From positions 1,789,324-1,853,323 of the forward strand of contig OZ316891.1 of the NCBI GenBank assembly GCA_973895155.1: a stretch of 64,000 nt of DNA, read 5' to 3'. Below the pieces are notes generated by a model. It was not told the DNA's origin and ran no database searches. It worked only from the letters and a program-made list of their open reading frames with translations. Positions 23,851 to 60,155 of this stretch are shown in pieces. Origin of the DNA: Marsupella aquatica (taxonomy: Eukaryota > Plantae > Marchantiophyta). How positions within the stretch are numbered: the first letter of the stretch is position 1; every line of letters starts with the position of its first letter. The position numbers and the translations under genes were made by a program.

Positions 23851-25573
23851 ACAAACACAATTCACGAGAAGTGGATGAATTCTGAGCGAAGGGTCTTTAA
23901 ATAGCTTTAACGCAGAAGGGATCCCTGAGTGCTGTCTGAAGTTTTGACGGGCTTGCTTGACTTTAAATAGGCTACGCAAGGACCCAAACTTCGGGCCGAA
24001 CGTCAGCAGGACACAACTTGTCTGAGCGACCAACGAATGACATGCGGGATGAGCTGAGTGGAGCTCAGGATTGGCCACTATAGTAGTGAGTACTTACATA
24101 GGACGAATGATCAGAGCTGAAATAAGGAACAAAGCATGACGAATGACTAATGATTCCGAGGAACTCAGGAATTGGCCAGCGTGCTGTACTCGCATATGAC
24201 CAGCGACCAGCGCTGAACGTAAGTGACAGCTAGATCATCAGAACCTCAAAAACATTCCTGAGACATTGATAATAGGTCTGGTGGTTTATTGTGGCCATAA
24301 TTGTCAGCAATAGAATTTTCAGACAGCTGGTTAATTTGCTCCACATGACAAGTCAAAGCATGCATATTGGTGTATTTCATCTAGTGATCTAGAGGCGGTA
24401 GTTTTCCCCGGCAAGAGTGTTCCCACAACCACCGGTGGACGTTACGAACATCAGTTTCAAGTTCCTTATCAAACGAAAAATCATATCACTTTGGTTCGCC
24501 ATATTGGAGGGCGAGCCAATGCCCAGGAATCAGGATTGAATAATTATGCACTCTAGAATGTGATCTAGAATAGGAATCTGATTCCATTTTACTCTATAAT
24601 GAGCCATCCAGCCAAAAGGGGGCACAATTAGTTTTCTCAAAACTGGCTTGCATTGTTATTACAATATAGAATCCAATCAAACACTAGTCAGAGGGACCCA
24701 TCTTCCCAAGTCCTTTTCTCAAGGTCCAATTTGCCAGATTGTACCAGCTCAACACCCTATCTTGCACACAGATGTTGAGCAGGAGATGTAGCTGTGTAAA
24801 AGATGACATTGCGTATAAAAATGTGTTTGCTGAAATGATGTCCTTGTTGTCAAACAGAGGTTGTGTTTAGAGTTCTTTGCTCAATAAAGGAGGTTGCATA
24901 AACGATGTTGTAATAAAATTAGACAATGTTGCATAAAATGTGTCTTAGTAAATTAATAAAAAAAATGACTGTTTTGGTAATATGGCCATGATAAAAACCA
25001 CAGGGTCCTTTATCATGGTTTGTGGGTGTGGAAGACTTAGTATGAATGCTCATTTTGGCTGGGTTGTTGTTCCCCAAATGTTATCATCTTAGACAAAGAC
25101 TGACTGTTGTTATTGCTTGCTGTCGGGGATTCTGAAGGTAAGGACATAGGACCCCAAGATGGATGACGGTGGCCATCACATCTGGGAGTCTAAGCATGGT
25201 TGCAAGCACAATATGATGGAGTAGTTTTTTTTTTTTCAAATATTTTCAATGGATAAATATCTATTTTTAGCAAAGAGTAATTTTGGTTTTGGTTTTGCAA
25301 AGTTTTTCAATTGATAAATATTTTCATTTAGATGCAGTATTTTTTAGATTGTTTTGAAATATTTCTATTGAAAGATTAAAATTAGGTTTTCAAGATTTTC
25401 AATTTTGTTTTTTATTTCTGTCCATCATTCTAAATTTTTATTTAATTTCTCTTTTCTGTCTGACTTACTAGCTGTTTTGCACTCAAAGGGCAGGGTGGCT
25501 TTGGGCTCTTGGGCGATATGTCGCCCATCCCAGTACATAGATGTTACATTATGGAGTCTCCGGTTCAGTCAGA

Positions 25574-28500
25574 GCAAAAACCAAGTAGTCCGGGCACATT
25601 TAATTTTCTGTGAGACATCTGGAGAATTGTGCTTGAATACTTTTGCTTCAGATCAGCCTGCAACGGGTTGGACGGTACGTTCCTTCCCCTCACGATATAT
25701 TGTCAACTGTAACGTCGATCACTACCTTGTTATTTCCATCCCATCTCCATCCCAACCAGGATCCCAACAATCACGACAACCACAGTGGATTCGATCTCAA
25801 AACGCGTTTTAGTTCAGTTTCACGGCCATCTCCAAAGCAGGTGTTTTTATTAGACTGCGTTGTCCACTTCATTTGGGGTTCACGGTTTAGGGTCCACCAT
25901 AGTCACGGAGATTCTCATCTATTGCTAAGAATACATTGCCATAATTAACCCCACGACACCAATTATCAAAACATAAGGATTTTTTTCAGATGGTCTAGCT
26001 GTTTCTTACTTCAGCGCTGGTCGCTGGTCATACGTAACTACAATCTGCGATCCCTGAGTTCCGGCCTCAACATATTCATTAGCTGTTATGTAGTCATTCG
26101 TCATTCTCTGTTCCTTATTTCAGCGCTGTCACTTGTCATGTGTAGCTAGGTACTCACTACTATAGTGGCCAATCCTTATCTGCAATCAACTCATCTTGCA
26201 TGTCATTCGTTGGTCCCTCAGACACTCGTATCCTCGTATCCTGCTGGAGTTTGGGTCCTTACGTAGCCTATTTAAGCCAAGCAAGCCCGTCAAAACTTGA
26301 AATAGCAATCGGGAATCCTTCGCTGATCGAGCGTTCAAGCTGTTGAAGATTCTTCCTTCGCTGAGAATTTATCAACTTCTCGTGCATTGTTGTTGCCAAG
26401 CGCCAGCTTAGGGCACTTATCCTTCTCAGCAAATGGAGGATCCTCTGGATTGGGCATCGGATGGAGAAGACAACGTCTACTATGACAGTGAAGACGATGC
26501 AGATGATGGGTGTGACCAACAAGTCGAGATTAACGAGAACAATGAGCACTCAGACTATGAAATTCTAAGTCAGGAGGACATCCAGCAGCGCCAAGAAGAC
26601 GTGGTTTCCAGCGTCACCACTGTCATATCACTCTCGAGGCCTGAAGCTGTTGTTCTTTTGCACCACTTCAATTGGAACTCCAGCAAAGTGAATGAGGAAT
26701 GGTTTGAAGATGAGGAGCGAGTTCGCAAAATTGCAGGGCTTGTCCAATCCCATCCACAACAGGAAGAGGAAAAGAGATCTCTTCCAGACAGGACATGCGA
26801 AATCTGCTACGAGTCGCACGATTCAGAGCAAATGAAGTCGGCATCGTCGTGTAGACATTTCTTCTGCGACACATGCTGGACTGCATACATCCACACCGCC
26901 ATTGAAGACGGCCCAGGCTGTTTGACTCTTCGCTGCGCTCATCCATCCTGCAGCGCTGCTATATTGGAAGACATGGTTCTATCGTTGGTCTCACCAAAGG
27001 ACGGAGCCAAGTATTCAAGATACCGGCTGAGAGCGTTCGTGGAAAACAGGAAGACGACCAAGTGGTGTCCGGCTCCGGGGTGCGAGTATGATGTGGAGTG
27101 TGAGCAACAAGCTAGCTCTTTGTCCATTCTGTGCAAGTGTTCCCACAAGTTTTGCTGGAATTGTTTGCAGGAGGCTCACCGGCCTGCAGATTGTGAGACT
27201 GTTGCAAAGTGGGTTCTGAGATTTAGTTCAGAATCCGAAAACATGAACTGGATTCTGGTCAACTCCAAGGCTTGTCCCAAGTGTAAGCGACCAATAGAAA
27301 AAAATAACGGGTGCATCCATATGACCTGCCAGGCACCCTGCAGGTTCGAATTCTGCTGGCTCTGTCTTGGAGCGTGGACCACTCACAATGAGGAGTCGGG
27401 AGGAAACTACGGATGTAATGGATATGACGATGCCGTGAAACAGGGTCTGCTTGATGAAGTACAAAACAGAAGAAAAATGGCTAAAGACTCGCTAGACCGT
27501 TACACGCATTTCTATGAACGCTGGGTTGCGAATGAATCTTCGAGGAGAAAAGCCCATGAAGATCTGCAGCACGTGCAGTCCGTGATGGTCGACAAGCTCT
27601 ACGACAAGCAATGCCAAACTAAGTCCGAATTGGAATTCTTGAGTAAAGCATGGCTGCAGATCGTTGAGTGTCGACAAGTTCTGAAGTGGACGTATGCACA
27701 TCGCTACTACCTACCTGATCATGATCAAATGTTGGAGTACTCGCAAGCGGAGGCAGAAGCCTTTCTGGAGAGACTCCATGAGTGCGCCGAAAACGAGGTG
27801 CAACAATTTCTTGACGGTGAAGAGAGTCAAACTACCTTCAAAGAGTACCGTATCAAACTTGTACACTTGACGGGTTTAGCACACAAACATTTTGAGCAGT
27901 TTGTACAGATACGTGGAGAATGGAAGCGCGTGAGCAGATGTACAGAAAAAGTTAAAACGAAGTGGACACATTTAGACAAAGTTGGCAGGACTCCTCAAGT
28001 ACCTGGCTCTCAACGCCGATCTGTGATCGATCCGGTATAAATGTGCACAATGCCACAAGTCCATAACGGAGTCTGCCTCTAGACCATCCAACTAATACTG
28101 GGACTTATACACGAACGCTTGGGTTAGGAATTCCACAGCTTTGTCGATCTTGAGCTTCTCAGCTGTCACAAGCAGGCTCACGAGCAGGCTCACGAGATGT
28201 ATAGCAAACTCAAGAGGACGGCCCTATTGGGCAGCGACGAGAAGCTCTGCAGGATCTAGTTTAATTTGCATCCGTAGCCTTGCATCTTGTATAGATGACC
28301 GCTAGAGAACTGCTCCCACTCTGCTTGTTGTAAGCTGCCAAACCAAATTATGGTTTAGAGTATATATGGTTAAATATGAGTAGTTAGAGCCGACACTCAT
28401 GTATGGTTTGAGGGTCGGTATGAACACAAACGATAGTGCCTGAGATGATCTCTGATCAATTCGCGTAGCCATTTTTCGTCGCTTGTTATGACACTGTATC

Positions 28501-28758: not shown

Positions 28759-30797
28759 CGGCTCTAACATGTTTTCACCAGTGGATTAGTGGATTCTAAT
28801 TTCAAGAAGGATAATAGTGAAGACCAATGGGTTTGTGTTGAGTGTGATAATTCCAGTATTTGTAATATTTACTCAGTTAGTTTTCAGAAGTGGATGCTCT
28901 CATCCCATATGTATGGAGCAACATTAAGAATCTGTAGCCAAGTAAGATGTCTTACACTTTACAGACAGGAGTAGTGGATGACTTTTTTAGCTTGTTAAGT
29001 GCAATGTCAACTCTAATGTCTTGTAGTGAGTTTTCGTTGAAATTCTTTGGAGAACTTTGATATGTAGTCCTATATGTAGTTTAAATTAGATGTTTGTGTG
29101 CTAAAGCCCCAATGGCTTTCACACATTGCCAAATATTATATGGCAATATGTTTGTTTAGTGTACTTGTCACTTAATGGTACATTAAATAAAATGTGCATT
29201 TATGATTGAATCTCTTCGCAAAAGATTTTTTTTATAACAAATGAAGGGTGTTTTAAATCTCCAAATCTATCTGATTATAATAACATAGGTAAGTTTTATA
29301 TAGGACTGAAAATTCTGTTCAGAACGAACAAGATACATTTTAATGGTCTTCCAAAATATAACAAGGGGTACATGGGGGGCCTTCAGTCACAGGTATGTCT
29401 CAGTACATTTCCCTTAGTGAGGGCCCAGGGGCTCAACATAAGCACCTTTCACAAAGGTATGAGCCAAAAGTCCATTGACAGGTTTATCGTAACCACCATG
29501 GGCCCTCACTCTATGTATACTAAGTGTACCCCTGTGCCCGGACCCCCCTTGCCTACCCCTTCTTAGTATTTTTTCTTTCATATACATTACCCTTGTTCCA
29601 TGTAAAAAATTAGTTTTTGATAATTTTTTATACCCTTAGGTGACTTATAAAACTGATAAAATCTATATTTGAAAACCCATTGTGGAATTATAATAAGGAA
29701 AACCCAAGATAGGGCTAACATACAAGATCCAAAATGATGCATACAACGCCTAGTGGGCTTAAAATCACTCACACAGTTTAGATATGTTTTACCAGTTTGG
29801 CTAAACTAGTATAGGCAAGACTACGGACAAGACATGGATCGGTAGGGAATAGTGTTGAGCATAGACAACAATCGCAATGGCAAGCCCATGAACCATCTAA
29901 CGCACAAGAGTTGACACAGAGAGATACGTGATTCACCTCCACAGGAACACACATGAGCTTTACTGCACTCTAGGCCGACCGGCCATACCAAGCATCCACA
30001 ACGCAAGCTCTCTCTATCTCTCAACTAGCTCCGTAACAATGAGCCTGAGTTCTCACTCTCCAAGCAAACACCGCTTGGTTATAGAGTGTGCACAGCATGA
30101 CTAACCTAACCAAGTCTGCGACTAAGGTTAGCCTTAACTACGGTACAGTCGTAACTCTAGACCTAAAACACGATTTCGGACCGAACGAGAACTATTTCCT
30201 CTAAACGAGAAGTGTATTTTCATTTTCCGCCGAATCTCGCGAAATCGGCAGTTTTTTTCATCAAAAACACATTTTTGGGGAAATAATGTAATTCGTATCG
30301 GAGTTCGGATTGAAACAACAAATTTAATAATGATCAAAACCAATGAAATTCATGCTAACAAACATTCATATTATCAAGGAACAATTAGATCCGAAAAACT
30401 TTCTCCTCAACCTCATATTCACGCTCTCCGAAGATATATGAAAGGTCTTATCTATAAATCTATATCCATGTTTCGAGCCAAGTGCGATAACTGTATCGGA
30501 CTCCGGATTTGAGCCATGAAAGCTCCGACCCAATCTCAGTTTTATCAGTTTTTGGATATTTACCAAAAATATTTTACATCACAGTCGATAAGAATTACTG
30601 CACGGTTCGTCAAACTTACCTTGCAGTTACCTCCACAATTGACCAGTTACCTCCGCAAGTGACCATAGTCAACATGCCATTCTTTCAACAGCAATGCGTA
30701 GTCCGATAAAATTATCGCAAAAAATATGGGCGACAAAAATACTAGTCGACAATACTAAGATCCTTCGGTTCATCGGTTAAATTTCAAAATTCCTATC

Positions 30798-31000
30798 CAT
30801 ATGAAGAAAACTCTTCGCAATACCAACATCAGATAAATTTATCGCTTCAATTTCAGAATTGCAACTTCCATATGAAGGAACCACTTTTGCAATACCAACA
30901 TCAGATAAATTTATCGCTTCAATTTTAAATTGCAACTTCCATATGAAGGAACCACTTTTGCAATACCAACATCAGATAAATTTATCGCTTCAATTTCAAA
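30798..31000. repeat. About 72-bp tandem repeat, 3 copies, each carrying AGATAAATTTATCG, upstream of the transposase promoter
   Basis: CATATGAAG...GCAATACCAACATCAGATAAATTTATCGCTTCAATTT repeated; motifs at 30831, 30903 and 30974. Confidence 0.88.
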
Positions 31001-31092
31001 ACTATATAATTTTGCCACGATGCACTTGTGAGAATGAAATTGGAAATCCAAGAAATATACCCTTTTCTGCTATTTTGTCGTTTAGGGTGACA

Positions 31093-31144
31093 GCCAATCA
31101 AAAGTGGACACATGGGCCAACCCCTCAACAGACACTATAAAAGG
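31093..31144 (+). promoter_or_regulatory. Putative transposase promoter (CCAAT box and TATA box)
   Basis: GCCAATCA near 31093 and CTATAAAAGG near 31135, about 120 bp upstream of ATG 31257. Confidence 0.5.
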
Positions 31145-31256
31145 GCCACCGCTGATAAGTTTTTGGCGTCATTATCGAGAGTAGAGTTTTGGGAGTTGTG
31201 TTCTTGGAGCAACATTCTGTCCGTTGAGCCTTTCGTTTTCCCTGATTGCGGGAGGA

Positions 31257-33750
31257 ATGCAAAGCCCCATAGTGTCTCGGATAGCCATGTCTCAATCAGA
31301 CACAGATTCACCTTCCAGTTCAGTTGAATCCTCTTCTAATCTTGTCGCTCGCTATTTGCCAAGTCGCATACTTAAAGCTCTACCTCTCTCACAGCAAATA
31401 GTGCCCGAAATCTCTGACTCAGATTCTGATGCAAGTTCTGGTCCTGAGCCCAGTGCTTACTATGTGTCGCCTAGTAAACCTGAGAAGCGTCGTCTCTTGA
31501 GCGTTCCATCGCCAAGAAATGAGAAACTTTCAATCCCAGGTTTAGGTCCGAGACGTCGCTTCAGGCCATCTAGCCCGGGTTATGGAGAGGGTATCCAACG
31601 ACCGATATGCGTATCGCAGTCGACATTCAAGTCGCCACATTCAACACAAGTTCAACGACGGATCTTTCAATCTCCGGGTGAGGATCGGGACACAGAAATA
31701 CAAAGACTGATACGGCGATCGGTCTTTGCATTGCCTGGACTGGATGTGCGAGCAAGCGAGGGAATCGGACTGCGAAGTCCAGACTCGGCCCTTTCTCGAA
31801 TGGTCCGTGGGAATCGTGGTGAACAAGTGCTCAATTTTCCAGTAGCTCGCGGAGTCATTGGGACTGCACGTGCGAATCCAGAATCTCCAAGTTCTCAAGG
31901 GCGGACTATCATTGGTTCCAGGCTCCAAGTATCGAGGAGAGGTCTTAGTGGCGTTCGGGTTATGTATAGAGAGCCACGGAGTCCAATTGTGTTTTCAGAT
32001 GAGTCGAGTGCATCGGAGGACGAAGATGAGGAAGGAGATAGAGAATCCGATATAATAGCACAAGTTGTGTCTGAATGTTTAGAAGGAGCTGTCGAAGAGA
32101 ATAGTTATAGTCGTCTATTCAGTGCCCCTCTAAATGCGTCAAGGAGATCTGTAGAGGATGGTAGCTCAGCAGAGAGTGATGCATCTATTCGCGAGGCACC
32201 TGAAGGACCTGAAAATGCCAATGTTATGAACGGATTTCAGGCTGTAGAGAAGTCAAATGAGCCTAGTAAAAAAGATAGGGACCGAATTACTAGGAAAGAC
32301 AATGTGATAAATGACAAATTGAATAGAAACAAAATGAGAGAAATTCATAAGTATTCGTGTTGTGATAATTACTGTCTGAGGAATTTGGGTTTGCTAGCCG
32401 TGACGAAACAACGCACTTATTACTATGGGCTATCCTACCCAAAGAAGAACGTCCTTCTAAGAGGATGTGTGAAGGGTGGGCATGCTGGTGCAAGTGGTTA
32501 CTCAGTTAGCGGTAGATCCTTTTGTCGGAGTGGTTTTAAGAAATTATTTTCACTAGGAAATAATCATCTCCAAAAAATCTCGTAGAACATGTTTTCTCGG
32601 ATACAGATCGATACAGTTTGTCGAGAAAAATCACCCGCACATCTTGGTCTCGTCCAATGGCTGGATGATTTTTTTTCCACAAATGTCGAGAGTCTCCCCA
32701 ACAAGGATATCTTTCATTTACCTGACAATTGGACAAAAACAGAAGTTTTTGATGCCTTCCAGTCCGAAACTCTAATGCGCCAAGAACAAGGCATGACATA
32801 TTCGTGGTTTGTTCGCATTTGGAACAAGAAGTTTCCTCGCGTGCGCACCCCCAAAAGGAGCCGTTTCTCCACCTGCGCCCCATGTACTGAATCAAAGCAG
32901 TCCGCGACAAGGCAACACTCGAAGCAGAAAAGAGTAAGTTTCTAAACCTGTGTGTTACTCCCGATAATTTTATCGGGTTGAGTATTCATGTGCTTCTTCT
33001 TTGGCCATGTGAGTGAATATATCGTTTGAACAGTTTGAATACGAACCTGATAAATTTATCGCTGTCACAGTTTTTCATTACGGTCTTGTGTTTGAATACT
33101 GAACCCGATAAATTTATCGTTGTCACGGTTTGTCATTACGGTTTCGTGTTTGAATACTGAACCCGATAAATTTATCGCTGTCAGGGTTCAACATTGCGGT
33201 TATCATGTTTTGTCCTAAACATTTTTATTATTGTAGGAAAATTCTCAACATTGCTAAACGAGCATCGGAAGGGACAAGCAATCGAGAGGGAGAAGTTAGC
33301 AAAGCACCGGAGCAAATGTTACAAGAGTCCGGAGAAATATTTGGGCATCTGTATTGATGGAATGGATCAAAAGAAGACAGAGTTACCTCATTTCATTCGG
33401 TGTCCAAAGAATATGGATGAAAAGTATTTCATCCCCGTACACGTAGTGGGTTGTTTGATCTTCAACAAATAATTAAGTTCAAATGTTTTTTTGAACTATC
33501 CAAATATTAACAATGATAGCAACTTGACCATCCACGTTATCCAGCATATTCTGAATACCTGGGAAGGTCTGCTCCCTCCAGTGCTTTACCTCCAGTGCTT
33601 TACCTCCAGCTTGATAACACAGCTCTGGAAAACAAGAATAAATATCTTATGGCATATTTGAATATGTTGGTGAAGATAGGTGTTTTCCATAAAATAAAGG
33701 TTGGTTTCCTATTGGTGGGGCACACCCATGATCAAATTGATCAAATGTTT
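31257..33750 (+). pseudogene. Sola-like DDD transposase, 2 exons, disrupted and 3'-truncated
   Basis: Long S/P/R-rich N-terminus; CCDNYC; WNKKFPRVRTPKRSRFSTCAPC; catalytic-like motifs ICIDGMDQ, LYLQLDN...ENKN and FLLVGHTHDQIDQMF. GT-AG intron 32934-33236. Lesions: TAG at 32583, frameshift near 32890, TAA at 33470, 14-bp duplication near 33595, truncation near 33750. Confidence 0.85.
33035..33183. repeat. About 58-bp tandem repeat, 3 copies, in the transposase intron, each carrying the GATAAATTTATCG palindrome
   Basis: TTTGAATAC(T)GAACC(C/T)GATAAATTTATCG(C/T)TGTCA; motifs at 33048, 33106 and 33164. Confidence 0.88.
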
Positions 33751-35283
33751 ACCCAAGCTTCCAGCTCACCATATATTTGCTTCCCGTTCATTTTAAACAA
33801 CTCGGACTTTGCCCGAGCACCATGATTCCCTCCAATAATTCTATACTTCCATACCCTTGACTTCAGGATGTCCCAATCTGCGGTTGTGGGACAATCCTTC
33901 GGATCCACACACAGCACGAACGGGGCACTGAAGTTGGTGGGGTTTTTCATGAGAAGTATCTTGATATTTTCCACATGCAATCTATTCACTGGTCTAATCA
34001 AAGTTGACAAATCCCCCTCCTCATCAAATATGAGATTGTCGACATGCAGAAGCACAGTTGTCCTTTGCACCCTTCGTTGCATCAGAAGACTGAGCTCTGC
34101 CTTGATCGCGTCCGTCTCATACATCGAAAGAGCCGTCTCCTCCTCCTGATCAGCCTACAAAAGCGTTGCAAATTCAATTAAGGAAAGAAACTGCGAGATT
34201 TTTATCGGAGTTTGCATTTGTTCAACATAACTCCACAATCCGCAATTCAGGAAATAAACAGCGAGATTTTTATTGGATTTCGTATTTGTTAAACAGTACA
34301 ACGACATAGTACTTACCAATGGCGCCGCAGGAACCGCGACTGGAACTGATGGAATTGACGGAGCTCTATCTACTTCTGCAGCCACCGTCTCAGTCTAGCC
34401 AGTCCTCTTCCTCTTTGTGCTAAGTCCAGAACCAGATGGCCCGGATCCCTCGGATCCTTTACTTTCGCTTGGTTTAACGGATGGTCCTCGACGGTTGCCC
34501 CGGCCTCTCCCACTACCGCCAGTTTCCTGGCTCTTCTTCCCACCGTCAGAGGTTCCCGCGGCATCTCCCCTGCCGCTACCTCTCCCTTTCCCTCTTCCAC
34601 TTCCCGAAACCCGACTAGAAGTTGTAGGTTCGTCCACGTCAATATGTGTAGAGGATTGCAATGGTTCTTTCCGCCCCGACATTTTATCGGCATTAGAACC
34701 ACCGCTACCACTTGAACCTGGTTTCTTGAAAACAATTTTGCGGACAGGTTTGAACTCTTCACCCACGTCTTTCGTACTCTGCGTTCACCCTTGGAAGCAT
34801 GATGGCATCACAATCTTGCACATACTAGCCGATCCAAGCCGAACCCATAACATTCATCTCTCTTGCTGCCCGAACTTCCGCAACAAGGGGATCTTCTGGA
34901 TAACTGTCCATCAATTTCTCATCAAAGTTATCGAGAGTAACAATGAGAGATGTGAAACCCTTGTGCCCACACATTGTCAAGAAACTAAGGCCCTCTGTCA
35001 ACACTTTTCCCTCCCCGTGGCCAACCATGAACTCGACGACGGCAACAGCAATGACAGGGCCATACGAAACATTAACCTTCGCCGATTTTTGCAACTGGAC
35101 CCAAAGGATTGGGGTAGCACAATCTTCAAAACCCGTGGACTGTAATCTGGCGTCACGGAAGTACCATGACTTCTTGATACACTTGACCTCTTCACAAATG
35201 TCTTCACTCGTCCAAATTGCATTGGTGAGGCTTGTCATGAGACTTTCTGCCTCAGCAGATCCACTCTTTCCACTAGCAGCCAT
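33741..35283 (-). pseudogene. Transposon cargo gene with a ParB/Sulfiredoxin-like domain, 3'-truncated
   Basis: ATG 35283 (MAASGKSG..); Gly/Ser/Arg-rich linker at 34395-34766; in-frame phase-0 GT-AG intron 34316-34155. The last exon reads LHVDNL..IRPVN..HVENIK..APFVLCV..YRIIGGNHGARAKSEL..LEAWV, matching the ParB/Srx core pattern. Stops at 34825 and 34395, plus a frameshift near 34780 if the first ORF belongs to the same gene. Confidence 0.7.
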
Positions 35284-35481
35284 GGCAAAGTCTGCAAATA
35301 AACAAATTCCAATGCAAAGAGCGATAAAATTATCGCCGCCAATCTCACAGCACATGTGGACACGACATCTCATCACACAAGGACAAAGAGACCCGCAATG
35401 CAAATGACCGATAAAATTATCGCAAAAGTGAGCCTTCTTTAAATTGACGGCCGAGTGTACAGGTCGAAGAATCAGCTACAG

Positions 35482-35523
35482 AACCCTAAATCCAAAACCT
35501 TAACCCCTAAACCTAAACCCTAA
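35482..35523. repeat. Degenerate plant telomeric/telo-box tract inside the transposon
   Basis: AACCCTAAATCCAAAACCTTAACCCCTAAACCTAAACCCTAA. Confidence 0.65.
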
Positions 35524-36233
35524 TCATAGTTGAACCTCGCCAGAGCAAAGCGTTCGATCCGCTTCTTGGGCCATTGGGGAATATGAGTGACGCGATGATC
35601 ATAAGCCCACAGCCAATGGAAATCAACTTCACCAGTCTCAGGATTCACTACTGCTACTGAATACCGGCGTGACAGAATGTCACAACAAGCATTTGTGCAG
35701 CATGGACAGATCTCACCATTGGCAAGGACGTTTGTCCACAGGCAACTTACATAGATCAAGTTAAAGAGAGCACAGACCGGCTGGGGGGGGAGTTGACGAA
35801 TCTTGTATGAATATAGTTTCCCACCAGTGTCAATAAAAAACTCGGTGGCAAGAGGATTGTCCAGCTCGTCAATCACATCCTGAATCTCATCGAATGCTCT
35901 ACGTCTGTTGTCGGCATAGAATTCTGGCTCATAAGCAGGATTGCCCTTCACAACATCACAGCAGTGGAGTATAAAACGTCTTACTACACCGGTTTTCAGA
36001 AAGAGTAGGATAACTCTTCTAGAAAATCCAACATATCTATCCCACCGAATATAAATTTCTCCCCCTACCTGATCTACGTAGAAGTGAAATGCGTTATGGA
36101 AAAACGGTTTTACTACCAGCCTGCATATCTTTAAAATTAGTGACTCATCCAGCCTCCTTAGCTGGTCCAGCATGGCTCCATTCCCCCATTCTGGAGGATC
36201 CAGGTAGGGTACAAAAATGCGTCGCTCGAGCAT
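35520..36233 (-). CDS. Transposon cargo ORF, 237 aa, possible divergent split F-box-like protein
   Basis: Uninterrupted ATG-started ORF. LRRLDESLILKICRLV and LFNLIYVSCLW resemble the two halves of an F-box motif separated by an insertion; Cys cluster CPCCTNACC. Confidence 0.55.
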   Translation of the reverse strand: MLERRIFVPYLDPPEWGNGAMLDQLRRLDESLILKICRLVVKPFFHNAFHFYVDQVGGEIYIRWDRYVGFSRRVILLFLKTGVVRRFILHCCDVVKGNPAYEPEFYADNRRRAFDEIQDVIDELDNPLATEFFIDTGGKLYSYKIRQLPPQPVCALFNLIYVSCLWTNVLANGEICPCCTNACCDILSRRYSVAVVNPETGEVDFHWLWAYDHRVTHIPQWPKKRIERFALARFNYD

Positions 36234-36548
36234 GGCCTGATCACCGAATAGAAATCAGGAATAAATTTTGGAGAACATACTAATTACAATTCTACAAGTT
36301 TCATCCAACTTTACAGTATCTTGTATAACGGGCTGTGAAGCCAATGCACTTGTCAGCTAATCGTCCGAAGAGGCGCAAACAAATACACTCTGGACCACAC
36401 AACCCGAAGTCAGGGGAGGCAGAGTCAATTACATTCAAAGTGTTTCTTTACAAGCTCTTCTCGAGCAAACCTTAGAGCACCCAAAATCGACTAGAGGAAT
36501 GAGGAGTGCGATAAATTTATCGGATGTTCGCAGCAATGCCTCATCCAC

Positions 36549-37097
36549 TCAGACTCGTCCATGCCATGCAAGAATTGTCCGCTTCCCGCTTTCTCCAAGA
36601 TTTATCCAAACTCTAAGAAACTGATCTAACTGCTCATACGAAAAGCACCCAAGCATATCTATGGGAGGGAGGAAATGAGTTTCCTCTCGGAAGACCCTAG
36701 CAATATGTATGTTTGAGAGAAGGTCGGCATTAGGAATGCTTGCGAGCATTTTGTTTATGTCATTGATCTCACGGACTGCATATTTCAATAGCGCCCAAAA
36801 TTGTGTACCAACAACAAGATGGTTCCATTTCTTTGAGGTGGCTCCAAGACAAATGATTGTTCTCATTCGAGTCAGTCGTTCTTCTAGTAGAAGTTTTAGG
36901 TCAAGGCCAAGGTGTTCATCTTGTGTGCAAGACAAGGCTAGGAGGGGCCAAATGTGAGATTCAACGAGTTGATCGGGAAGTCCATTCAACAAACTTCTGC
37001 ATTCCACACCGGGCACTTTTTCTCGAATATATTTCCTACGCTCGTGGGCTAAAACGGATCCCATCTTTGCAACGATTAGATTCTCCGACGCAACCAT
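36549..37097 (-). CDS. Transposon cargo ORF, 182 aa, F-box-like protein
   Basis: LLNGLPDQLVESHIWPLL...IICLGATSKKWNHLV follows the plant F-box pattern (LIPGLPD..L...I...L / L..VSK.W..LV). Intact ORF. Confidence 0.68.
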   Translation of the reverse strand: MVASENLIVAKMGSVLAHERRKYIREKVPGVECRSLLNGLPDQLVESHIWPLLALSCTQDEHLGLDLKLLLEERLTRMRTIICLGATSKKWNHLVVGTQFWALLKYAVREINDINKMLASIPNADLLSNIHIARVFREETHFLPPIDMLGCFSYEQLDQFLRVWINLGESGKRTILAWHGRV

Positions 37098-37291
37098 GAA
37101 GTAGAGCTACCAAAACCACCAATAAAAATACCTTCAATCACCAGGTGTAACCGAACACATCCACAGTACCAACCCTGCACGACAGTTTAACGATTAGGAC
37201 TTGTGACGTATTATATTCGCTGCGCAAGGGTAGGACTTGTTTATTTAAATATGTCCTTACAAGACGCGCCTCAATGCAAAGGTCGAAACAC

Positions 37292-37621
37292 TCATCGTGA
37301 AAGGTTCACCCAAGGGTCTTCGTTCCAAATCTTACAACAGAAGTGAGCCTGTTTGTGGTACTTGTTGTCAAGACGACGACAACAATAGTTACAAGAAAAC
37401 TCCAAAGAATGTAAACACGCCGTTAACATCAACCTCGAACGAATTGGAACTCCTGCATCATTCATTCCGCATAATTCAATGCAGAGAGGATTCTGCCTAT
37501 CTCCAGGATCAGTACCACCCATCCACAATGCTCCTATACCGATGGGGAGAACTTTGAGTCGCACGAGTCTCTTGTACAACCGGCGTGCACGTTTGACACA
37601 ATTTTCAAGGAAGACAGCCAT
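37292..37621 (-). CDS. Transposon cargo ORF, 109 aa, small basic Cys/His-rich protein of unknown function
   Basis: ATG-started ORF co-oriented with the other cargo genes; CLH..FSCNYCC..HFCC. A TATA-like CCTATATAAAG lies on the minus strand near 38213-38223. Confidence 0.4.
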   Translation of the reverse strand: MAVFLENCVKRARRLYKRLVRLKVLPIGIGALWMGGTDPGDRQNPLCIELCGMNDAGVPIRSRLMLTACLHSLEFSCNYCCRRLDNKYHKQAHFCCKIWNEDPWVNLSR

Positions 37622-37755
37622 TTGTCACAATACCTGTTGTCCACAGAGTGCAATCGACCTTCCGTTGTGCCTCCTAAACCCGGCAACACTGCGACATCAG
37701 AGATGAAGATGAGTCTCCAAACAAAACAAAGGAAAATGATTCTCATAGGAGGATG

Positions 37756-38086
37756 CGATAAGTTTATCGCACTCCGCATTCGAATTGAAAATATGACTTC
37801 CTCAGACACCTAAGCCCTGAATTCAATCTTTCACAAAAATACAACTCCGATAAATTTATCGGATTCTCAATTACTCCTCTTTCCATGAAAGGAATGAAGA
37901 CTCCGATAAATTTATCAGAATGAAGGCAACACCTCTCTAAACACTGGATCAAATGATTGCAACAGAGGAATGCAGAATGCGATAAATTTATCGCAGTCCG
38001 CTCAGATCTGGACATTTTACACTAAATGACTAGTTAGTCTTACATGGAGAACTTGAACAGGAATGGCTGTTCCGATAAATTTATCG
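37756..38086. repeat. Cluster of five CGATAAATTTATCG-type palindromes upstream of the cargo genes
   Basis: Motifs at 37756, 37848, 37904, 37980 and 38073; TGCGATAAATTTATCGCA at 37978-37995 is a perfect 18-bp palindrome. Confidence 0.9.
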
Positions 38087-41000
38087 GGTTTTTGGTAGAA
38101 AGAGTCGAATCGCTTGGGAGGAATGTAAGACTCGATGGGAGTTTGGTATTCGCTCTCAGTCAGGAGATATTTGCTCTGGCGAAAGCAAACGTTTTATGGG
38201 CAGCCCGCTCCTCTTTATATAGGAGACGCTCTACACCATGGTTAATTTCCCCTTAACCATGGTTAAGTTTCCCCTTTACTTGGATTAGTGCGTGGTCGTT
38301 CCTGGATTACGCGGTTCGGACCAAGTTACTCGTAGTTCAAACTTTTTCACTGACGGAATGTAAAACCCGATGCACGTATCGCTCCTTGCATCCCGCGGCG
38401 ATGCAATGGAGGAAAGTGGCGTTTCGGAGAGTTTTTGCCAGTTTTATTGGTCATTGCATTGCCTTAGAAAAAAAACGGGATCGGGCTAAACGAGAACTCC
38501 GACACACTTCTCGATCGGTCCGAAATCGTGTTCTAAGAGTAAATCCTAACAAATAGGTGGGCAGTGGCAACATCCCCACAAGCATGGGCACTGCCTGCAC
38601 CGAGCGTGCACTCTACATTGGAGAGACTATAATTACAAACGTGATTACAAACCAGATAATCAAGCTAAGATATGGGTCTAGGTACTAATAGAGTGATTCA
38701 CTCGGGACACTATGTTCCAATGATTGAGACCTTGCCACATGGCCCCTTATACAATGACACGTGTTACATACATTATAGGACCCCTTCGGCTAAGATAATA
38801 TGCCACGGTTTTGGAAATACCCTTCTTCCTTATAAACCCAAATTTGTATAAAGTTGAGGGTTGGTTGGTCCTAATTGAATTATAATTATTAGCCGAAAAT
38901 GGATTAAAAATACCCTACAAGTGGGCACACGTGTTTCTGGGATTACGTAAGCTGAGGGCCCACGGCGTAGCCATCAACGACTTCGGATAGATGCAATGTT
39001 CAAGTCTGCAATGGGGATGCCGACTGAGCATTTAATCTATAACCACTGCGTGTTTTCTCTCCAAAACATGTACTCAAATCTTGGTCACTTACATCAGTTA
39101 TCTTATAAGGATTTTCACCGACATTGGGGAGTCCAAAGGTGAAAGCAAAATATGTCGGGTCTCTCTGGAATTCTACAGGATCCCAATCCTTTGTACTCTT
39201 TGAGTCGCTCTTCCAACTTGACCCACACGGTTCTACTAAAACAGCAGGCTTGGCACCCCCAACAATTACAGGTACATCTCTAACTTGCGGCGCTCTACAT
39301 GGTCTATTGCATTAGACACATTTTCCAAAAGTCCATCGAGGTCAAGAGGCACAACACCCATCGTAACTTAGTCTGATTGAGGACACATACAAATGCAACA
39401 GTCTGACAAAGTAAAGTTGCATGGCTACAAATCTAACTTCAACATTCAATGGAAAAGGTGACCAAGAAATTGGAAAAGGAGCAAAAGCTATTCACCCTCG
39501 CCTCAAATCAATCCCCCAAATTTAGCCACCAAATCCTTGAACAAAGTCTTGCACTCTTCGACCGCGCCTCGCCTCAAACCTCCTTGATTGTCAGTAGTGG
39601 ATTCCGGCTAATCAAATGTGATGCAAATGAGATGGAAAATTGCTGTCCGTGGAAGGGTCAAGCTGGTGCGCCTCACCTCCAAATGCGGGATTCAAAATCA
39701 TCTAAGTGCTAGGCAAGAACGACGAGAGAATCCAGAAGTGTCCAAGTGAGAGCAGTTTGCGCGCAGTGACCTTCAACAGAGCCCAAAAGAGACAAACAAA
39801 TTAAATGTGGCTTCGCCAACACACATCAAGTACCCCACCACGCCGGGAAAGCCGTGTCAAAGGATGTGACTCCTGTGAAGGACATTGTCACTTGCTTATC
39901 CAACGATTAATACGTGCAAACCATACTTTTCCTTGCTTAAACCGTTGGTATCGTATTATGGGGTCGTGGAGGGACGCTATTTGGAGGATTTCCACACCTA
40001 AGGATGAGTATATTTGATTTCGCTCCCGGAAGTGTACTTTTTGATCAAGTCTACCGACTGGTCTCTCCGTTTTTGATCAAGTCCAAGGGACTGGTCCTAC
40101 CATCTACAACTCATGCCCATCGGGTGAGTGCTGTCACCACCCCCCTCTCATGGGCAAGCATACAAACGTTTACAACAAGATTTGAACACTAGTGACAAGG
40201 GCAAATGTTTCCACAACGAAACCGACCACATGCACTAGGGGAGGAAAACAAACAACACAAGCAACAACAAGTGACACACAAAATATTGGAACCTCAAGTC
40301 AAATCCATATCTCTTGGTGTTTCCCGTAACACATGCAAGGACAACCCGGCCTCATGCCGTCTGCCCAACTCCTGCCTCCCGGGGACAAGTGCTACGTTCT
40401 CCACCTCACTACTCTGGCTTGAACTTCTCCTAATTGGTGCGCTACTCACAAAAACTACTCAAAAGCATCCAAGCACTACGCTGAGTTCCCCCCTGTACCT
40501 GCTCTTGGAAGCCTTCATAAACTCCCGCCTGGCCTCCTCACTCACGGTGGCAGCCTCGTGTCCCAGTAGCACTCCGCCCTGGCACTCACGCTCCTTCAAG
40601 GCACGCGGCCCTATGCAAGGCGCGCCTTCTCCCTCGCGGCTCCCCCTGCTTTCTCACTCGCGGGGATTCTTTTTTTTGGGGGGGGGGGATTTAACCCCTC
40701 CCCGTTTTTCCCCTTTTTAACCCCCTTCTGGTGTGCTGCACTATGCCTCCCCTGGCGCTCCTCGACAGTCTCCCTCGCGACTCCCCCAGTCTCCCTGGCA
40801 GTCCCATTGGCCCCGGTGCTTGTGTCTTGCCAGGTACAATGTTAGGATTTACTCTTAGGTCTAGAGTTACGACTGTACCATAGTTAAGGCTAACCTTAGT
40901 CACAGACTTAGTTAGGTTAGTCATGCTAGGCACACTTTATAACCAAACGGTGTTTGCTTGGAGAGGTGGAACTCAGGCTCATTGTGACGGAGCTAGTTGA

Positions 41001-41169
41001 GAGATAGAGAGAGCTTGTATTGTGGATGCTTGGTATGGCCGGTCGGTCTAGAGTGTAGTAAAGCTCATGTGTGTTCCCGTGGACGTAGCCTCATGTGGAG
41101 GTGAACCACATATCTCTTGGTGTCAACTATTGTGCGTTGCATGGTTCATGGGCTTGCCGTTGCGATCGT

Positions 41170-42698
41170 TGTCGTGGGGATTCTTTGTTTAGTAAGTTCC
41201 TCCTAAGTATAGCTTAGTAGTATAGGATAGTAGTTTAAATTCTCGCATATGCAGTCTATAGTGTGCATGCTACAGTGCACAACCTACAGTGTGCATGCTA
41301 CAGTACACGGTCTACAGTATGCATGCTATATTGTTCGATCTACAGTGTGCATGCTACAATGCAAGACCTACAATGTGCATGCTACAATGTACAATCTACA
41401 GTGTGCATGCTACAGTGTACATGCTACAGTGTACGATCTACAGTGTGCATGCTACGGTGTACGATCTACAGTGTGCATGTTACAGTGTACGATCTACAGT
41501 ATGCATGCTATAGTGTACGATCTACAGTGTGCATGCTACAGTGTACTGTCTACAGTTGCTCCACTCACGTAACTACAGTACTAGCACACTTACTTGCCTT
41601 GGATGTGTGACACATGGCTTCCATCCATGTGCCATGCTTGATCCGTGTGCTTGAGGTGTGAGCACTATAAGTAAAGAGGAGAGGGGCTCTCTCCCCTCAC
41701 TCCCCATTTTTCATCAACTAAGTTGTGAAGTCTTAAAAATCCATTGGACTTGATGATCTCTTCTATGAATATAACCCTTATGAAGTAGACCCACTCATGC
41801 ACTCTTGCTTAGAGCTTCGGCTCGGCCAGAGATATTTTGTATGAGTCGGACCTTCAAAAAGTGTTTTCATTTGATAGGAGATGGTTATTAAGTTCTAAAG
41901 AGTTGGAAAGTGCTCAACAATGCCTTGACATCATATGCTTTCTTTTGGGTGAAATCCTTATGAAGTAGACCCACTCATGCACTCTTGCTTAGAGCTTCGG
42001 CTCGGCCAAAGGTATTTTGTATGAGTTGGACCTTCAGATAGTATTTTCATTCAAAAGAAGATCAACCTATTAAGATAAACGTCTGCATGTATATACTTAG
42101 AGTTAACTCAATGCATGATATTTGTTTGAAATGGATGATCTTTTTGTTGAATGATTCTATCTCTTGTCATTAGAATGAAAATTAGTTGGATGGAATATTT
42201 GATAGTACGATAATGCCCAGACTAGTACCTATTCTTCCTCTCCCTAATCCTTTCCTTATTAGAATTCATGTACTCCAAAAAGAGATAATGCGCCAGCATA
42301 TGACTTTTCACTTTGGAGAAGCATTTGCAACTGCGGTATTAAATTCAATAGAGCCAATTGTATACCCTTATGTAGTTTACGGGCAGGATTGGGCTTGCAC
42401 AATTTTTATCTTGTATTGAGATGGATCTCAACAAACCTCCCTCCGATGAGCCTCCCGTTTCTTTCTCGTTGGGAGATATTCGTTTTGTAACTCAACCCAA
42501 GGTAGCTGCCAAGGAGGCAATAGTCCGTAGGTATGGAGAAAAGGGTTATGATGTTGTGCTTTCATCCACGGAACCGTTCCTTGTGGTGTCTGCTACCCAA
42601 TCTAGAATAGTAATCATGATCTTAACTTAAGTTCTCTCTTGACACTAGTAGCCATAGGCCCGGTGCTTCCTCAAGAACCACATTTTTCCCCCCAGACA
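41170..42698. mobile_element. 1.53-kb non-coding TGTC...GACA insertion (solo LTR of another family, or a non-autonomous TIR element)
   Basis: Termini TGTCGTGGGGA and TCCCCCCAGACA; TSD TCGT/TTGT inside the element B LTR. Internal minisatellite, a TATA-like CTATAAGTA near 41665, and an about 95-bp direct repeat at 41776 and 41956. Confidence 0.72.
41249..41555. repeat. Minisatellite, about 28-bp unit built from two related 14-mers
   Basis: CTACAGTGTGCATG-CTACAGTGTACGAT repeated about 11 times with variants. Confidence 0.9.
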
Positions 42699-42913
42699 TT
42701 GTCGTCTATTCTCAACAATTGGTATCAGAGCATGCTTGGGAGGTGATGAGGTTTTTTTGTGATGGTTTTCCAGTGTTTATTGTCGGTGTTGCATTTAGAG
42801 TTTTGTCGCACGAAACTCGAATGTGTGTGGCTGAGAGGATAGATTAGTGAGAGGGCTTTCTATCGGTGTATAGAACTCATTGGTTGGTATCCGTTGTATG
42901 GAGGAATTGGAGG

Positions 42914-45198
42914 TTGAGCCAATCAGGTTTACCACAAGAATTTTGGGTAGAAGCTGTCAATACCGCAGCTTATTTGGTAAATCTTTCTCCTTCTAGTGCT
43001 ATCAATTTCAAAATGTCGTTTGAGATGCGCTATAAGCGGCCAGCAGACTATCATGGCTTGGTAGTTTTTGGAAGTGATGCATATGCTCTCACACCGAAGC
43101 AGAATAGGACCAAGTTGGATCCTACCTCCAAGAAATATGTTTTTCTTGGGTACCAAAGTGGTGTGAAAGCTTATAGGCTATGGAATCCTATCGCCTGTAA
43201 GCTCGTTGTCAGTAGGGATGTTTCCTTGAATGAATCCAGATTATTGAAGGAGGGGAAGAATACTCAGGTCTCCCATACTGATAAAGGAAAATCTCCTATC
43301 CCGGATCTTGTTGAGGGGGAGATTGGTCATGAGGTGCATGACCGGAGAGAAGGAGTTGCTCCAATTATGGAGTTGGTTCCTGTGCCAGAGGAACCAAAGG
43401 AGTTTGTTGATGCTGGTGAGCAGCAAGTGGATGCTGCTGAGCTTCAAATTGTACCAGCACACGCAAATCAACCGGAGTCATCGGCTAGAAGAACATCTAG
43501 TCGCATTGTACGCGCTCCACCAAGGTATGGACAGTGGGTTGATTCATCTCAGTTGTAAGAGGAGGATTTTGTTACTGATGATGAGGGTGATGCGTTGATA
43601 CTTGAAGAAGGGGAACTTTCTTCATTTCATGAGGAAAGTGCTTCTAAGGAGAAGCAGGAGTGGACTGCAGCAATGCAAACAAAGATGCAGTCACTAAAGG
43701 ACAACAAAACTTGGGAGCTTGTCAAGTTGCCTGAGGGACAGCAAGTGGTGGACAGCAAGTGGATATACAAGCTAAAGGATCAATCCATGGTAGGTGGATC
43801 GAAGGTCTACAATGCTAGGTTGGTAGCCAAGGGATTTACACAGGAAAAAGGTGTTGATTACAATGAGGTCTTCTCACCGGTTGCTAAGTACTCAACAATA
43901 CTGCTATTGTGTGTGCTTGTTCTTATGTTTGGTCTGCTGCTAGATCAGATGGATGTTGTCACAACTTTCCTCTATGACACCTTGGAAGAGGTGATTTTCA
44001 TGAGACAACCGCTAGGTTTTGTGAAGAAAGGGCAAGAGGATTTGGTTTGCAGATTGTTGAGATCCTTGTACGGGTTGAAGCAGTCACCAAGGCAGTGGAA
44101 TAAATAGTTTGATGATTGGATTCATGCACAAGGCTTTCACAGGAGTGTGTTTGACCCATGTGTGTATCTTAAACCGGTGAAGAATGTTGTCTTTGGGTTC
44201 ATTGTTTTAGTGCTTTATGTGGATGACATCCTTATTGCTGCCAAGGATAGATCTGAGATTGTTAAGCTCAAGGCACTGCTAAGTGCAAAGTTTAAGATGA
44301 AGGACTTAGGGCCAGCTAAGAGGATTTTGGGTATGGAGATCACTAGGGACTTGAAGACTGGCAAGCTATGGTTGACGCAAAGCAGTTATGCGAGGAAGGT
44401 AATTGCAAGGTTCAACATGGCGGATAGCAAGCCAGTAAGTACCCCGTTGGCTCCACACTTCAAATTGTCACCAGCTTTCTGTCCTACGGATGACATAGAG
44501 AAGGGGTTGATGTCAAAGGTTCCGTATGACAAGGCAGTGGGGAGTCTCATGTATTTGATGACTTGCACTAGACCTGATCTTGCCATGGCTATGGGCAAGG
44601 TGAGTAGGTACATGTCAAATCCGGGGAAGGTACACTGGGAAGCAATGAAGTGGATTATTTGGTATTTGAAGGTACCGTGGATCATGGTCTATTGTTTGAT
44701 GCACATGCTGATAATGCTAGATCATTGATGAGCTATGTAGATGCTGACTATGCACAAGATCTGGATCGGAGGAGGTCAACAACAGGTTATGTGTTCACAC
44801 TGGGAGGTGGATGCATAAGTTGGTGGTCTACTTTGCAGAAATGTATTGCTCAGTCTATTACAGAAGCGAAGTATGTTGCAGCAGCGGAAGCAGCAAAGGA
44901 AGCGATTTGGTTGGATAGACTTATCACTGAGATGGGATTGCCACACGGGAATATGAAGCTCCATTGTGATAGTCAAAGTGCACTCCACCTTGCTGTGAAC
45001 CAGGTGATGGACAGCAGAGTGAAGCACATCGACGTTAGGTACCATTTTATCAGGCAAGTTGTGTTTGATAATATGTTTGAGCTAGTTAAGATTGATGGTA
45101 AACTCAACCCGGCTGACGCTTTTACCAAAGTGATTCCTTTGGAGAGTTTTTCTAGGCACCGTGATGTGTTGTAGGTTTTGCAATTGCCTCACAAGTAG
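42914..45198 (+). pseudogene. Copia pol remnant (IN C-terminus, RT, RNase H) with stops and frameshifts
   Basis: LSQSGLPQEFWVEAVNTA, ARLVAKGFTQEKGVDY, LYVDD and DSQSALHL; closely similar to element A pol. Confidence 0.93.
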
Positions 45199-46325
45199 GG
45201 TTACTTAACAGTTGTGTAGATACTGAGATATGCTCTTAGTTTTGATCTACTCTCGTATAAAGAGGGAAAACCCACTTTGGTTTTTCTTTCCCGAACTTCC
45301 CGTTGAGCAATCATATTGGTAGCAGTCTTTATCCTCCCCTAGACCAGAGTCAAGGGGGAGATTGTTAGGATTTACTCTTAGGTCTAGAGTTACAACTGTA
45401 CCGTAGTTAAGGCTAACCTTAGTCGTAGACTTAGTTAGGTTAGTCATGCTGGGCACACTCTATAACCAAGCGGTGTTTTCTTGGAGAGGTGGAACTCAGA
45501 CTCATTGTGACGGAGCTAGTTGAGAGATAGAGAGAGCTTGCATTGTGGATGCTTGGTAGGGCCGGTCGGCCTAGAGTGCAGTAAAGCTCATGTGTGTTCC
45601 CGTGGACGTAGCCTCATGTGGAGATGAACCACGTATCTCTCGGTGTCAACTATTGTGTGTTGGATGGTTCATGGGCTTGCCATCGCGATCGTCGTCTATG
45701 CTCAACATCCAGCACGCCTCCCTATGCAAGGGGACTTGCCACTCCTTGGGGAATTTAAATTCCCCACCTTTTCCATCGGCTTGCACCCCGGCTGCGGCTG
45801 CTCGCCCCGGTTACCTGCTCACCCCGGCTACCCTTGGTACCCTCCCGGGAGGGTATAATGTGACTCCCCCGCTGCGCCCCTTTTGGGGAATTTAAACCCC
45901 CCCGCGCCTGGGCGCCTCCCGGCTGCTGCCGCGCCTCGACCTGGCTCACGCCCCGGCTTCCCCTGCTTACTCGCGGAGCTCCCTCCTTAGCCCCCAAGAT
46001 TCCACATGTCAAGCCCTAGGGGTGCCCCATATAGCCCCAGCAGTCATTTAGTGAGGAGGCTTGCCATCCCGGGCTCCACCTGGTCCCACTCAATTCTTCC
46101 CCTCCTAAGCACTAGAACTTAAAGTTTGACTCCTTAGACCTTGCTATTGGGGTCTCAAAAAGAAGAAGAAAAAAAAGAGGGAATAAGGCCTAAGGGAAAC
46201 GGGGTGTCCGATTAGACCGGCCCTAGTTTCAAGGTCCCAACATCCTTGCTTGTTGGGAAGTCGTAGGCATCCGAACTATTAGGATATAAAAGTACGTAGA
46301 GACCTCCGGGGCATAGCAACCGATA

Positions 46326-59612: not shown

Positions 59613-60155
59613 GAATCCAATAAAACACTAGAGGAGCTAGGCTTTCTTTTTGTTGTTGTAGATGATGTGGAGTATTATGTGCCTGTCCCCTCTCGTGCTT
59701 GGACTTAGTTGTTTAGGTTACCCAGTTATGGAGGCCTTCCCGGTCCTGCTTTGGCCTCGTACAGCTCTCTTTACAACTTTGTTTAGTGCAAGGTTTGCTC
59801 TCCCCTTTGTGCTTGCTTCCTCTCACCGGGGTTTACAGGAAATTATCTATAAATGTTTTCTAAAAAATTCATAAAATAAAATAAAACACTAAAGAGGCCC
59901 ATCAAGTACTTCCCAAGTCCTTTTCTCTAGGTCCAATTTGCCCTTGGGGGTTTCAGTTGCATAGAATAGGCACATCAAATGCGACCACGAGGAATATGGT
60001 ACTTTTATTTGTTTTAAGTGATGACTTGGCGATCTTTATTAGAATAGCACAAGTCCACCATAGATACGAGCTTCTTGTCCTTATGCAATCAGGTCACGTT
60101 CCCAGTTTCTCTTCTCGCCGGGGAGAGTTACAGCCTCCAGATCACAAGATGAAAT

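Follow-up and report, generated by a model that had tools for sequence, protein, structure and literature searches.

In this work we have analysed a 64-kb window (the whole stretch of DNA considered here) from contig OZ316891.1 of the land plant Marsupella aquatica. At 30167-38532 the window carries a Sola1-like DNA transposon with terminal inverted repeats (TIRs; AACACG...CGTGTT) and a 4-bp target-site duplication (TSD), CTAA. This element (8,366 bp, against 55.6 kb for the rest of the window) holds many copies of a 14-bp palindrome, a DUF7869 transposase gene and, opposite to it, the remnant of a ParB-like gene. Comparison with sister elements leads us to favour, as the probable explanation, that the palindromes serve the element's own ParB-methyltransferase, which would mark element DNA, as parS-like docking sites. 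That the ParB-like protein binds the palindromes seems to us highly probable.

Palindromes and oriented sites

The 16 near-perfect palindromes of the original prediction were all recovered, six exact and ten with one mismatch, as were its degenerate copies at 30485 (two mismatches), 34194 and 38368; a further degenerate palindrome, at 34262, had been absent from its listing. They are distributed as follows.

30485..30987: five palindromes upstream of the transposase (30485, 30704, 30831, 30903 and 30974), the last three within a 71-72-bp tandem
31603..31616, minus strand: degenerate site with the full frame described below, inside the transposase 5' open reading frame (ORF); the lone exception in coding DNA
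32962..33177: four palindromes in the transposase intron (32934-33236), three of them in a 58-bp tandem
34194..34275, minus strand: two degenerate sites (34194 and 34262) in the intron of the ParB-like gene
35322..35422, plus strand: two sites 5' of the start of the ParB-like gene, in a likely 5' untranslated region (UTR) intron (acceptor 35293-35292)
36509..36522, plus strand: exact palindrome between two cargo ORFs
37756..38381: upstream of the cargo ORFs, five near-perfect sites (37756, 37848, 37904, 37980 and 38073) and the degenerate one at 38368

In 100 shuffles of the sequence the 14-mer occurred 0.07 times on average and once at most. The palindrome had been said to be confined to the transposon within the 64 kb, and this holds at up to two mismatches, with 17 copies inside the element and none outside; at up to three mismatches there are 18 inside and two outside. 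Coding DNA, delimited by hand from ORFs and GT-AG sites, accounts for 61% of the element, yet it holds none of the 17 palindromes (P about 1e-7). The predicted absence from coding regions is true of these 17 but not of two degenerate sites, 31603 in the transposase 5' ORF and 37284, which overlaps the stop of a 109-aa ORF. None of the 17 lies less than 300 bp from either end of the element. Six belong to two short tandem arrays; the predicted 58-bp unit was confirmed, while the other unit, at 30796-31000, is 71-72 bp long and not simply 72. The palindromes outside the arrays have unrelated flanks and occur in both orientations. On the minus strand a TATA-like box is found at 38211-38276, beside a 21-bp tandem, and the five right-hand palindromes are downstream of it; these may belong to an intron in the 5' UTR of the cargo transcript.

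The full site extends beyond the palindrome and has an orientation: AATR-N7-CGA[N8]TCG. Among the 17 copies of the window, AATR stands 7 bp from the palindrome in 10, 8 bp in 4 and 6 bp in 2, and in none at 4, 5 or 9-11 bp; the chance per site at 7 bp is 2.5%. Counting both strands, the frame AATR-N7-CGA-N8-TCG occurs 13 times in the element and nowhere in the remaining window. We compared it with five sister loci (L001-L005) from one metagenome scan with 216 pattern matches; these loci are partial, L004 measures only 1,086 bp, and three of the four informative loci share one sample-name prefix. The original prediction had made its case depend on conservation in sister families, and what is conserved is the frame, not the sequence: the exact 14-mer is absent from L001-L005 at up to two mismatches, while the frame occurs 17 times in L001, 10 in L002, 19 in L003, 4 in L005 and 0 in L004 on both strands. 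These sites are placed upstream of the ParB-like gene, in both its introns and downstream of it, and no distinct one is in coding DNA (0/11 in L001, 0/6 in L002, 0/19 in L003 and 0/2 in L005, 0/38 overall).

Within this frame each family has its own core. With up to one mismatch, core A, CGAGACNNGTCTCG, has 12 copies in L001, 7 in L002 and 3 in L005; core B, CGATCCAAACATCG, has 20 copies, in L003 only; and the window core has 16, in the window only, so that the three are mutually exclusive. The AATR arm often stands on both sides in core-A families, which yields a 36-bp palindrome, and on one side in the window and L003, where it orients the core. Sister families thus keep the frame with different cores, which bears out the earlier claim that the motif, and not one repeat unit, is maintained. 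Identity of the ParB N-terminal region is 83-87% among loci sharing core A and 48-65% between loci with different cores. Since the informative loci are only four and the transposase is inherited together with the ParB gene, this co-variation speaks for family specificity and not for one or the other protein as the reader of the site. The predicted recognition helix likewise shows an H/P difference between the proteins that go with core A and those that go with the CGAT cores, but four proteins are too few for this to be used. The full window site was also matched in 12 loci of viral contigs, which we read as chance because each had a single match without clustering.

Could a host transcription factor, exploited by the element, be the protein that binds? 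The half-sites contain GATAA, core A is similar to an auxin-response half-site, and sites in promoters and introns would suit such a factor. However, no copy with up to two mismatches exists across the 55.6 kb of host DNA, and one host factor would not explain three unrelated cores in one frame across families; we consider this very unlikely. That the sites arose through local tandem duplication or hairpins, with no protein partner, is scarcely credible. The two arrays would fit this, but not the unrelated flanks and mixed orientations elsewhere, nor the recurrence of a fixed 7-bp AATR spacer and of coding exclusion across four sister loci whose cores differ.

The ParB-like gene and its fused methyltransferase

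The gene opposite the transposase survives in the window as two exons.

35283-34317 (exon), 34316-34155 (intron) and 34154-33752 (exon), minus strand: ParB-like gene remnant with a stop and a frameshift

The first exon, in which the one stop and the one frameshift lie, encodes a conserved N-terminal domain of unknown fold and a low-complexity linker, and the second encodes the ParB N-terminal fold. The minus-strand ORF 33744-34154 resembles the ParB_N, DUF3723 and DUF6551 clusters of a protein atlas and has nine longer homologs with 55-83% identity, the closest of which, P0001, is 83% identical to the window remnant. The AlphaFold model of P0001 reached a pLDDT of 59 with nine sequences and 88 with 41. 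A Foldseek search with this model (E about 1e-5) placed Noc and ParB on top and KorB at ranks 17-19. Its N-terminal part aligns with Caulobacter ParB 7BM8 (Z 10.5, root-mean-square deviation (rmsd) 2.2, 98 residues); the region 150-309 aligns with Spo0J-parS 4UMK (Z 6.2, rmsd 4.3, 100 residues), and the whole-chain matches span both domains. The model thus contains a ParB N-terminal fold followed by a central ParB-type helix-turn-helix domain, the latter present in homologs only. The analogy with ParB/parS drawn in the original prediction is supported by this homolog model of an element-encoded protein that combines the ParB N-terminal fold with a ParB-type DNA-binding domain.

The N-terminal domain, of about 170 aa and of no known family, is conserved at 34828-35283 of the window, 643-1200 of L001, 393-950 of L003 and 1047-1604 of L005, and the upstream exon of the sisters is homologous to that of the window (34% identity, E 1e-26). 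It could read the AATR arm or chromatin. Matches of this domain to designed PPR repeats were sums of weak repeats and were rejected.

In L001, L002 and L003 the ParB exon is followed by a phase-0 GT-AG intron and then by an exon for PF01555, which scores 33.8, 31.0 and 33.6 bits against a cut-off of 26.7 (3/3 loci). From its 5' end, the gene encodes the N-terminal domain, then the ParB N-terminal fold and the ParB-type DNA-binding domain, and last the PF01555 N6/N4 amino-methyltransferase. The sister proteins are about 1,000-1,080 aa long; spliced L003 encodes 1,001 aa with no internal stop, whereas L001 has one internal stop and L002 a frameshift. An alignment of 18 of 28 homologs and two loci has the catalytic D[IVL]PY in all 20 rows, ahead of the S-adenosylmethionine motif DLC[CS]G in 19/20. 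The best NCBIfam match is CcrM, an adenine enzyme, far below the cut-off. Among 35 long distant homologs, picked from 150 listed, nine carry ParB-like and PF01555 parts in one ORF. The earlier reading overlooked the fusion of the ParB-like protein to an amino-methyltransferase, seen in the sisters, and the oriented AATR arm. Distant ParB-like relatives (P0055, P0096 and P0031) have SAM or Tudor-like fusions or two ParB-like units per ORF.

We found relatives of neither the ParB-like protein nor the transposase in the viral contigs and prokaryotic genomes searched, and none of the methyltransferase in the viral contigs; these searches therefore supplied neither a ParB-less control nor a prokaryotic donor.

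The transposase, the rest of the element and its surroundings

The remaining features of the element are these.

30167..38532: Sola1-like transposon, internally deleted, with an intact size estimated at about 12 kb
30163..30166, plus strand: left TSD, CTAA
38533..38536, plus strand: right TSD, CTAA
30167..30184, plus strand: left TIR (AACACG... end)
38515..38532, minus strand: right TIR
30184..30213, plus strand: two subterminal AACGAGAAST motifs, left
38489..38515: two subterminal AACGAGAAST motifs, right, one exact and one with one mismatch
31257..33751, plus strand: DUF7869 transposase of two exons (31257-32933 and 33237-33751), which contains stops and a 14-bp duplication and is truncated at about 33751
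33751..33752: internal deletion junction, at which all homolog matches end
35520..36254, minus strand: 244-aa cargo ORF, no family found
36549..37106, minus strand: 185-aa cargo ORF with a weak F-box-like match (E 0.06, below the cut-off)
37292..37621, minus strand: 109-aa Cys-rich cargo ORF, its stop overlapped by the degenerate site 37284

The element probably belongs to the Sola1 superfamily, to judge from the AAC... ends, the 4-bp TSD ending in A and the best match of an Ectocarpus element, Sola1-1_PPa_tp. The transposase matches the DUF7869 profile with E 1e-28, and DUF7869, which is also present in 5/5 homologs scanned, would correspond to the Sola transposases. The element ORFs scanned gave no Mutator-family Pfam match, and no ParA-like one was seen in 10 element ORFs and 7 sister ORFs, the latter from partial loci. 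At the end of both L002 and L003 lies the C-terminal part of a transposase from this family, tail-to-tail with the ParB-like gene, as in the window. In L005 a weak homolog of the 109-aa ORF (25% identity, E 3e-5) is found 5' of the ParB gene. In another family P0214, of 199 aa, begins as transposase and runs on as antisense methyltransferase when compared with L001-L003; on its sequence, it is an independent deletion that fused the two tail-to-tail genes.

Read evidence came from four runs, available as contigs (1,974, 3,862, 4,077 and 394 pieces) from at most three studies. Many variant contigs cover all bins in the four runs, the loose end at 33751 extends the transposase in contigs of runs X1 and X2, and other copies share neither the 14-bp duplication at 33575 nor the frameshift near 34766. 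The family therefore has many copies, of which the one in the window has decayed and suffered an internal deletion. From the exon order in sisters and the tail-to-tail transposase end, the deletion appears to have removed an estimated 3.5 kb or so, with the transposase C-terminus, the methyltransferase exon and the ParB DNA-binding domain. The empty insertion site is seen as an uninterrupted host repeat at 40855-41136, and also in 56, 61 and 22 contigs of runs X1, X2 and X3.

Is it possible that the transposase itself binds the palindromes, as internal helper sites for transposition or in an activation network of the AtMu1/TnpA type? Four sites are in its intron and five upstream of it; binding to clustered motifs and activation of cognate copies are known for the AtMu1c transposase and TnpA; and co-inheritance with the ParB gene makes family specificity fit either protein. 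However, the AtMu1 transposase and TnpA bind termini, whereas the palindromes are interior. The outermost 50 bp at the two ends hold four occurrences of a separate motif, AACGAGAAST (three exact, one with one mismatch; 17 matches at up to one mismatch in the whole window, 8 expected), which appears to be the better candidate for transposase sites. Moreover, the closest folds of the element's ParB-like protein bind palindromes of such size. We therefore regard binding by the transposase as unlikely.

The rest of the window is land-plant-like, with ARIADNE copies and copia elements. The ARIADNE/RBR E3 ligase ORFs number four (22413-23861, 26412-28040, 48756-50204 and 60729-62249); they are nearly identical, lack introns, alternate in orientation and are in some cases broken. 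They may be a local retrocopy cluster or the cargo of another mobile element. The three copia-type elements are at 1605-5887, 42851-45174 and 55978-59623; two are CpG-depleted (observed/expected 0.38) and the third is not (0.82). The transposon was inserted into an abundant host repeat resembling a long terminal repeat (starting TGTTAG, about 29900-30166 and 38533-38551) of very high read depth, with further copies at 40855-41136, 45378-45657, 1102-1269 and 7629-7796. There are also a tandem array on a 14/28-bp basis at 41255-41556 and an intronless 253-aa ORF at 19381-20142 (minus strand), possibly a processed copy, which resembles the C-terminus of a homogentisate prenyltransferase.

Proposed function and relation to known systems

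How might the ParB-methyltransferase act? We hypothesize that a dimer docks on the palindrome via two ParB-type helix-turn-helix domains, with family specificity given by the inner 8 bp, and that the tethered methyltransferase would write a mark nearby, which the D[IVL]PY motif makes more likely to be N6-methyladenine (6mA). The AATR arm is perhaps the methylation target, and since it has no invariant C the mark would then be 6mA; alternatively, it may be a minor-groove contact or be touched by the exon-1 domain. The mark or the bound protein would keep the element's promoters and introns open against host silencing by 5-methylcytosine, as VANC does. Such anti-silencing of its own promoters and introns is the likeliest purpose, although we hold it less firmly than the docking itself. 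Canonical sliding driven by cytidine triphosphate (CTP) is probably not used, which would explain many scattered sites in place of one loading site. The window copy, having lost its DNA-binding and methyltransferase exons, could be served only in trans. More tentatively, we can imagine a land-plant Sola1 'read-and-write' system from prokaryotic mobile elements, in which the family palindrome is read, 6mA is placed at the AATR arm as a silencing shield, and protein and site diverge together; we would sooner doubt this scheme in full than accept it.

It may be that the ParB-methyltransferase binds, as in our preferred explanation, and that the outcome is self-repression or dosage control, through KorB-like operators or through silencing N4-methylcytosine (4mC) or 6mA. 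Sites stand at every transcription unit, the ParB gene's own 5' region included, KorB is described as repressing the genes of its own plasmid from OB sites, and the rotifer N4CMT as depositing 4mC on silenced transposons. Nevertheless, the placing of the sites in introns and in intergenic and terminal non-coding DNA, and their tandem amplification, match VANC21, the ParB-like VirB acts as an anti-silencer, and 6mA has been discussed as tied to active transcription (PMC4738411). We judge self-repression to be improbable, if the least improbable of the alternatives.

Several observations weigh against an anti-silencing ParB-methyltransferase. The Z of 6.2 for the DNA-binding domain is below the tool's caution line of 8, and the sequence-level ParB matches are weak (E 0.07), with the Spo0J match lost in the deeper profile A2. 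Box II reads GNHG in the window and close homologs, without the GxRR arginines; the arginine is present in 1/36 rows shown and in 2/52 motif-bearing proteins (157 scanned). As ParB and VirB are reported to need the Box II GxRR/GxxR arginine for CTP binding, CTP sliding is doubtful here. Neither the methyltransferase nor the DNA-binding domain gave a tblastn match in the window copy, and we infer both for its own family from P0001 and from the sister elements, the latter 47-59% identical. The sisters were chosen via the ParB gene, so that motif density near that gene is biased; L004 has no frame site; and co-variation over four loci cannot separate the ParB gene from the transposase inherited with it. 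The viral contigs and prokaryotic genomes contained no ParB-less DUF7869 element as a control, and transposases themselves can be sequence-specific activators (bioRxiv 10.64898/2026.08.24.746577). CpG observed/expected with the motifs removed, a crude and non-discriminating proxy for loss of 5-methylcytosine and for the protection of CpG ends from deamination suggested in the original prediction, was 0.83 for the element, 0.38 for two copia elements, 0.82 for the third and 0.79 for the ARIADNE copies, and did not set the element apart from the last two. Lastly, PF01555 enzymes switch between 6mA and 4mC, and 4mC marks silenced transposable elements in rotifers, so that the effect may run in either direction.

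Among the closest known systems by description is Sola1-1_Ec32 of the brown alga Ectocarpus (PMC12477816), which has AACCG-CGGTT ends, a 4-bp TSD biased to end in A and Sola1-1_PPa_tp as its best blastp match. It encodes a 1,104-aa ParB-like protein with an N4/N6 methyltransferase, for which its authors suggest binding and modification of its own element. It shares with our element the Sola1 assignment, the AAC... ends, the TSD length and a gene opposite the transposase that joins ParB and methyltransferase; it differs in its host, and the available text names no binding site. In the red alga Bostrychia, the Plavaka elements PAG3/PAG2 have inverted-repeat arrays beside a ParB-2OG gene, and self-binding and self-modification were proposed (bioRxiv 10.1101/2025.02.11.637652). 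The ParB-like accessory protein with inverted repeats near its gene is as here, but the element is EnSpm/Plavaka, ParB is joined to a 2OG oxygenase, a separate gene encodes the methylase, and the arrays adjoin the ParB gene, whereas our oriented sites are dispersed over introns and promoters.

VANC/VANDAL is similar in that family-specific motifs, there of 8-9 bp, accumulate in introns, intergenic and terminal non-coding DNA and are partly amplified in tandem (PMC5735166). Its host is Mutator-like, its motifs are non-palindromic, and its binding and hypomethylation are proven; here we have a palindrome, a ParB fold and a fused methyltransferase. Spm TnpA and AtMu1 also have clustered family-specific motifs for an element-encoded protein, but with terminal binding and transposase-derived domains (bioRxiv 10.64898/2026.08.24.746577). 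Bacterial ParB/parS, Noc, KorB/OB and VirB/virS share the ParB N-terminal fold, the DNA-binding domain and short sites on their own mobile element, and KorB and VirB regulate genes without segregation, as we propose here. The present system differs from them in a Box II without CTP arginines, no ParA-like ORF seen, a C-terminal enzyme, the AATR arm and a spliced eukaryotic gene. The rotifer N4CMT and Marchantia DN4MT1 are likewise beta-type PF01555 amino-methyltransferases of bacterial origin in eukaryotes. They are host genes, DN4MT1 with TSPPY and writing 4mC and N4CMT aimed by a chromodomain, whereas ours has D[IVL]PY, is borne by a transposon and is predicted to be targeted by a ParB domain. 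Adenine methylases of another clade fused to a ParB helix-turn-helix are known in chlorophytes and chytrids (PMC4738411); further literature used for comparison is PMC8885841, PMC4455052, PMC12704722, PMC10770331, PMC11790492 and bioRxiv 10.1101/2021.02.12.428880.

We found no land-plant case and no defined site sequence in the literature covered, which excludes subscription journals, Repbase reports and the Bostrychia supplements (these may show repeats). The protein class and the idea of self-binding have already been published, as a prediction, for brown and red algae; new is a land-plant variant with concrete, family-specific candidate sites. Experiments could start from these defined candidate sites, the three variants paired with families, the unbroken 1,001-aa L003 gene and the predicted target base. 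If our explanation is true, land-plant DNA would have an enzymatic source of 6mA or 4mC and eukaryotic chromatin a ParB-family system, and if the 'read-and-write' scheme is also true, its members would be a natural set of sequence-targeted adenine methylases. VANDAL has been called the only proven case of transposon self-modification (bioRxiv 10.1101/2025.02.11.637652); the Sola1-like elements would then be a second, independent system of transposon self-marking.

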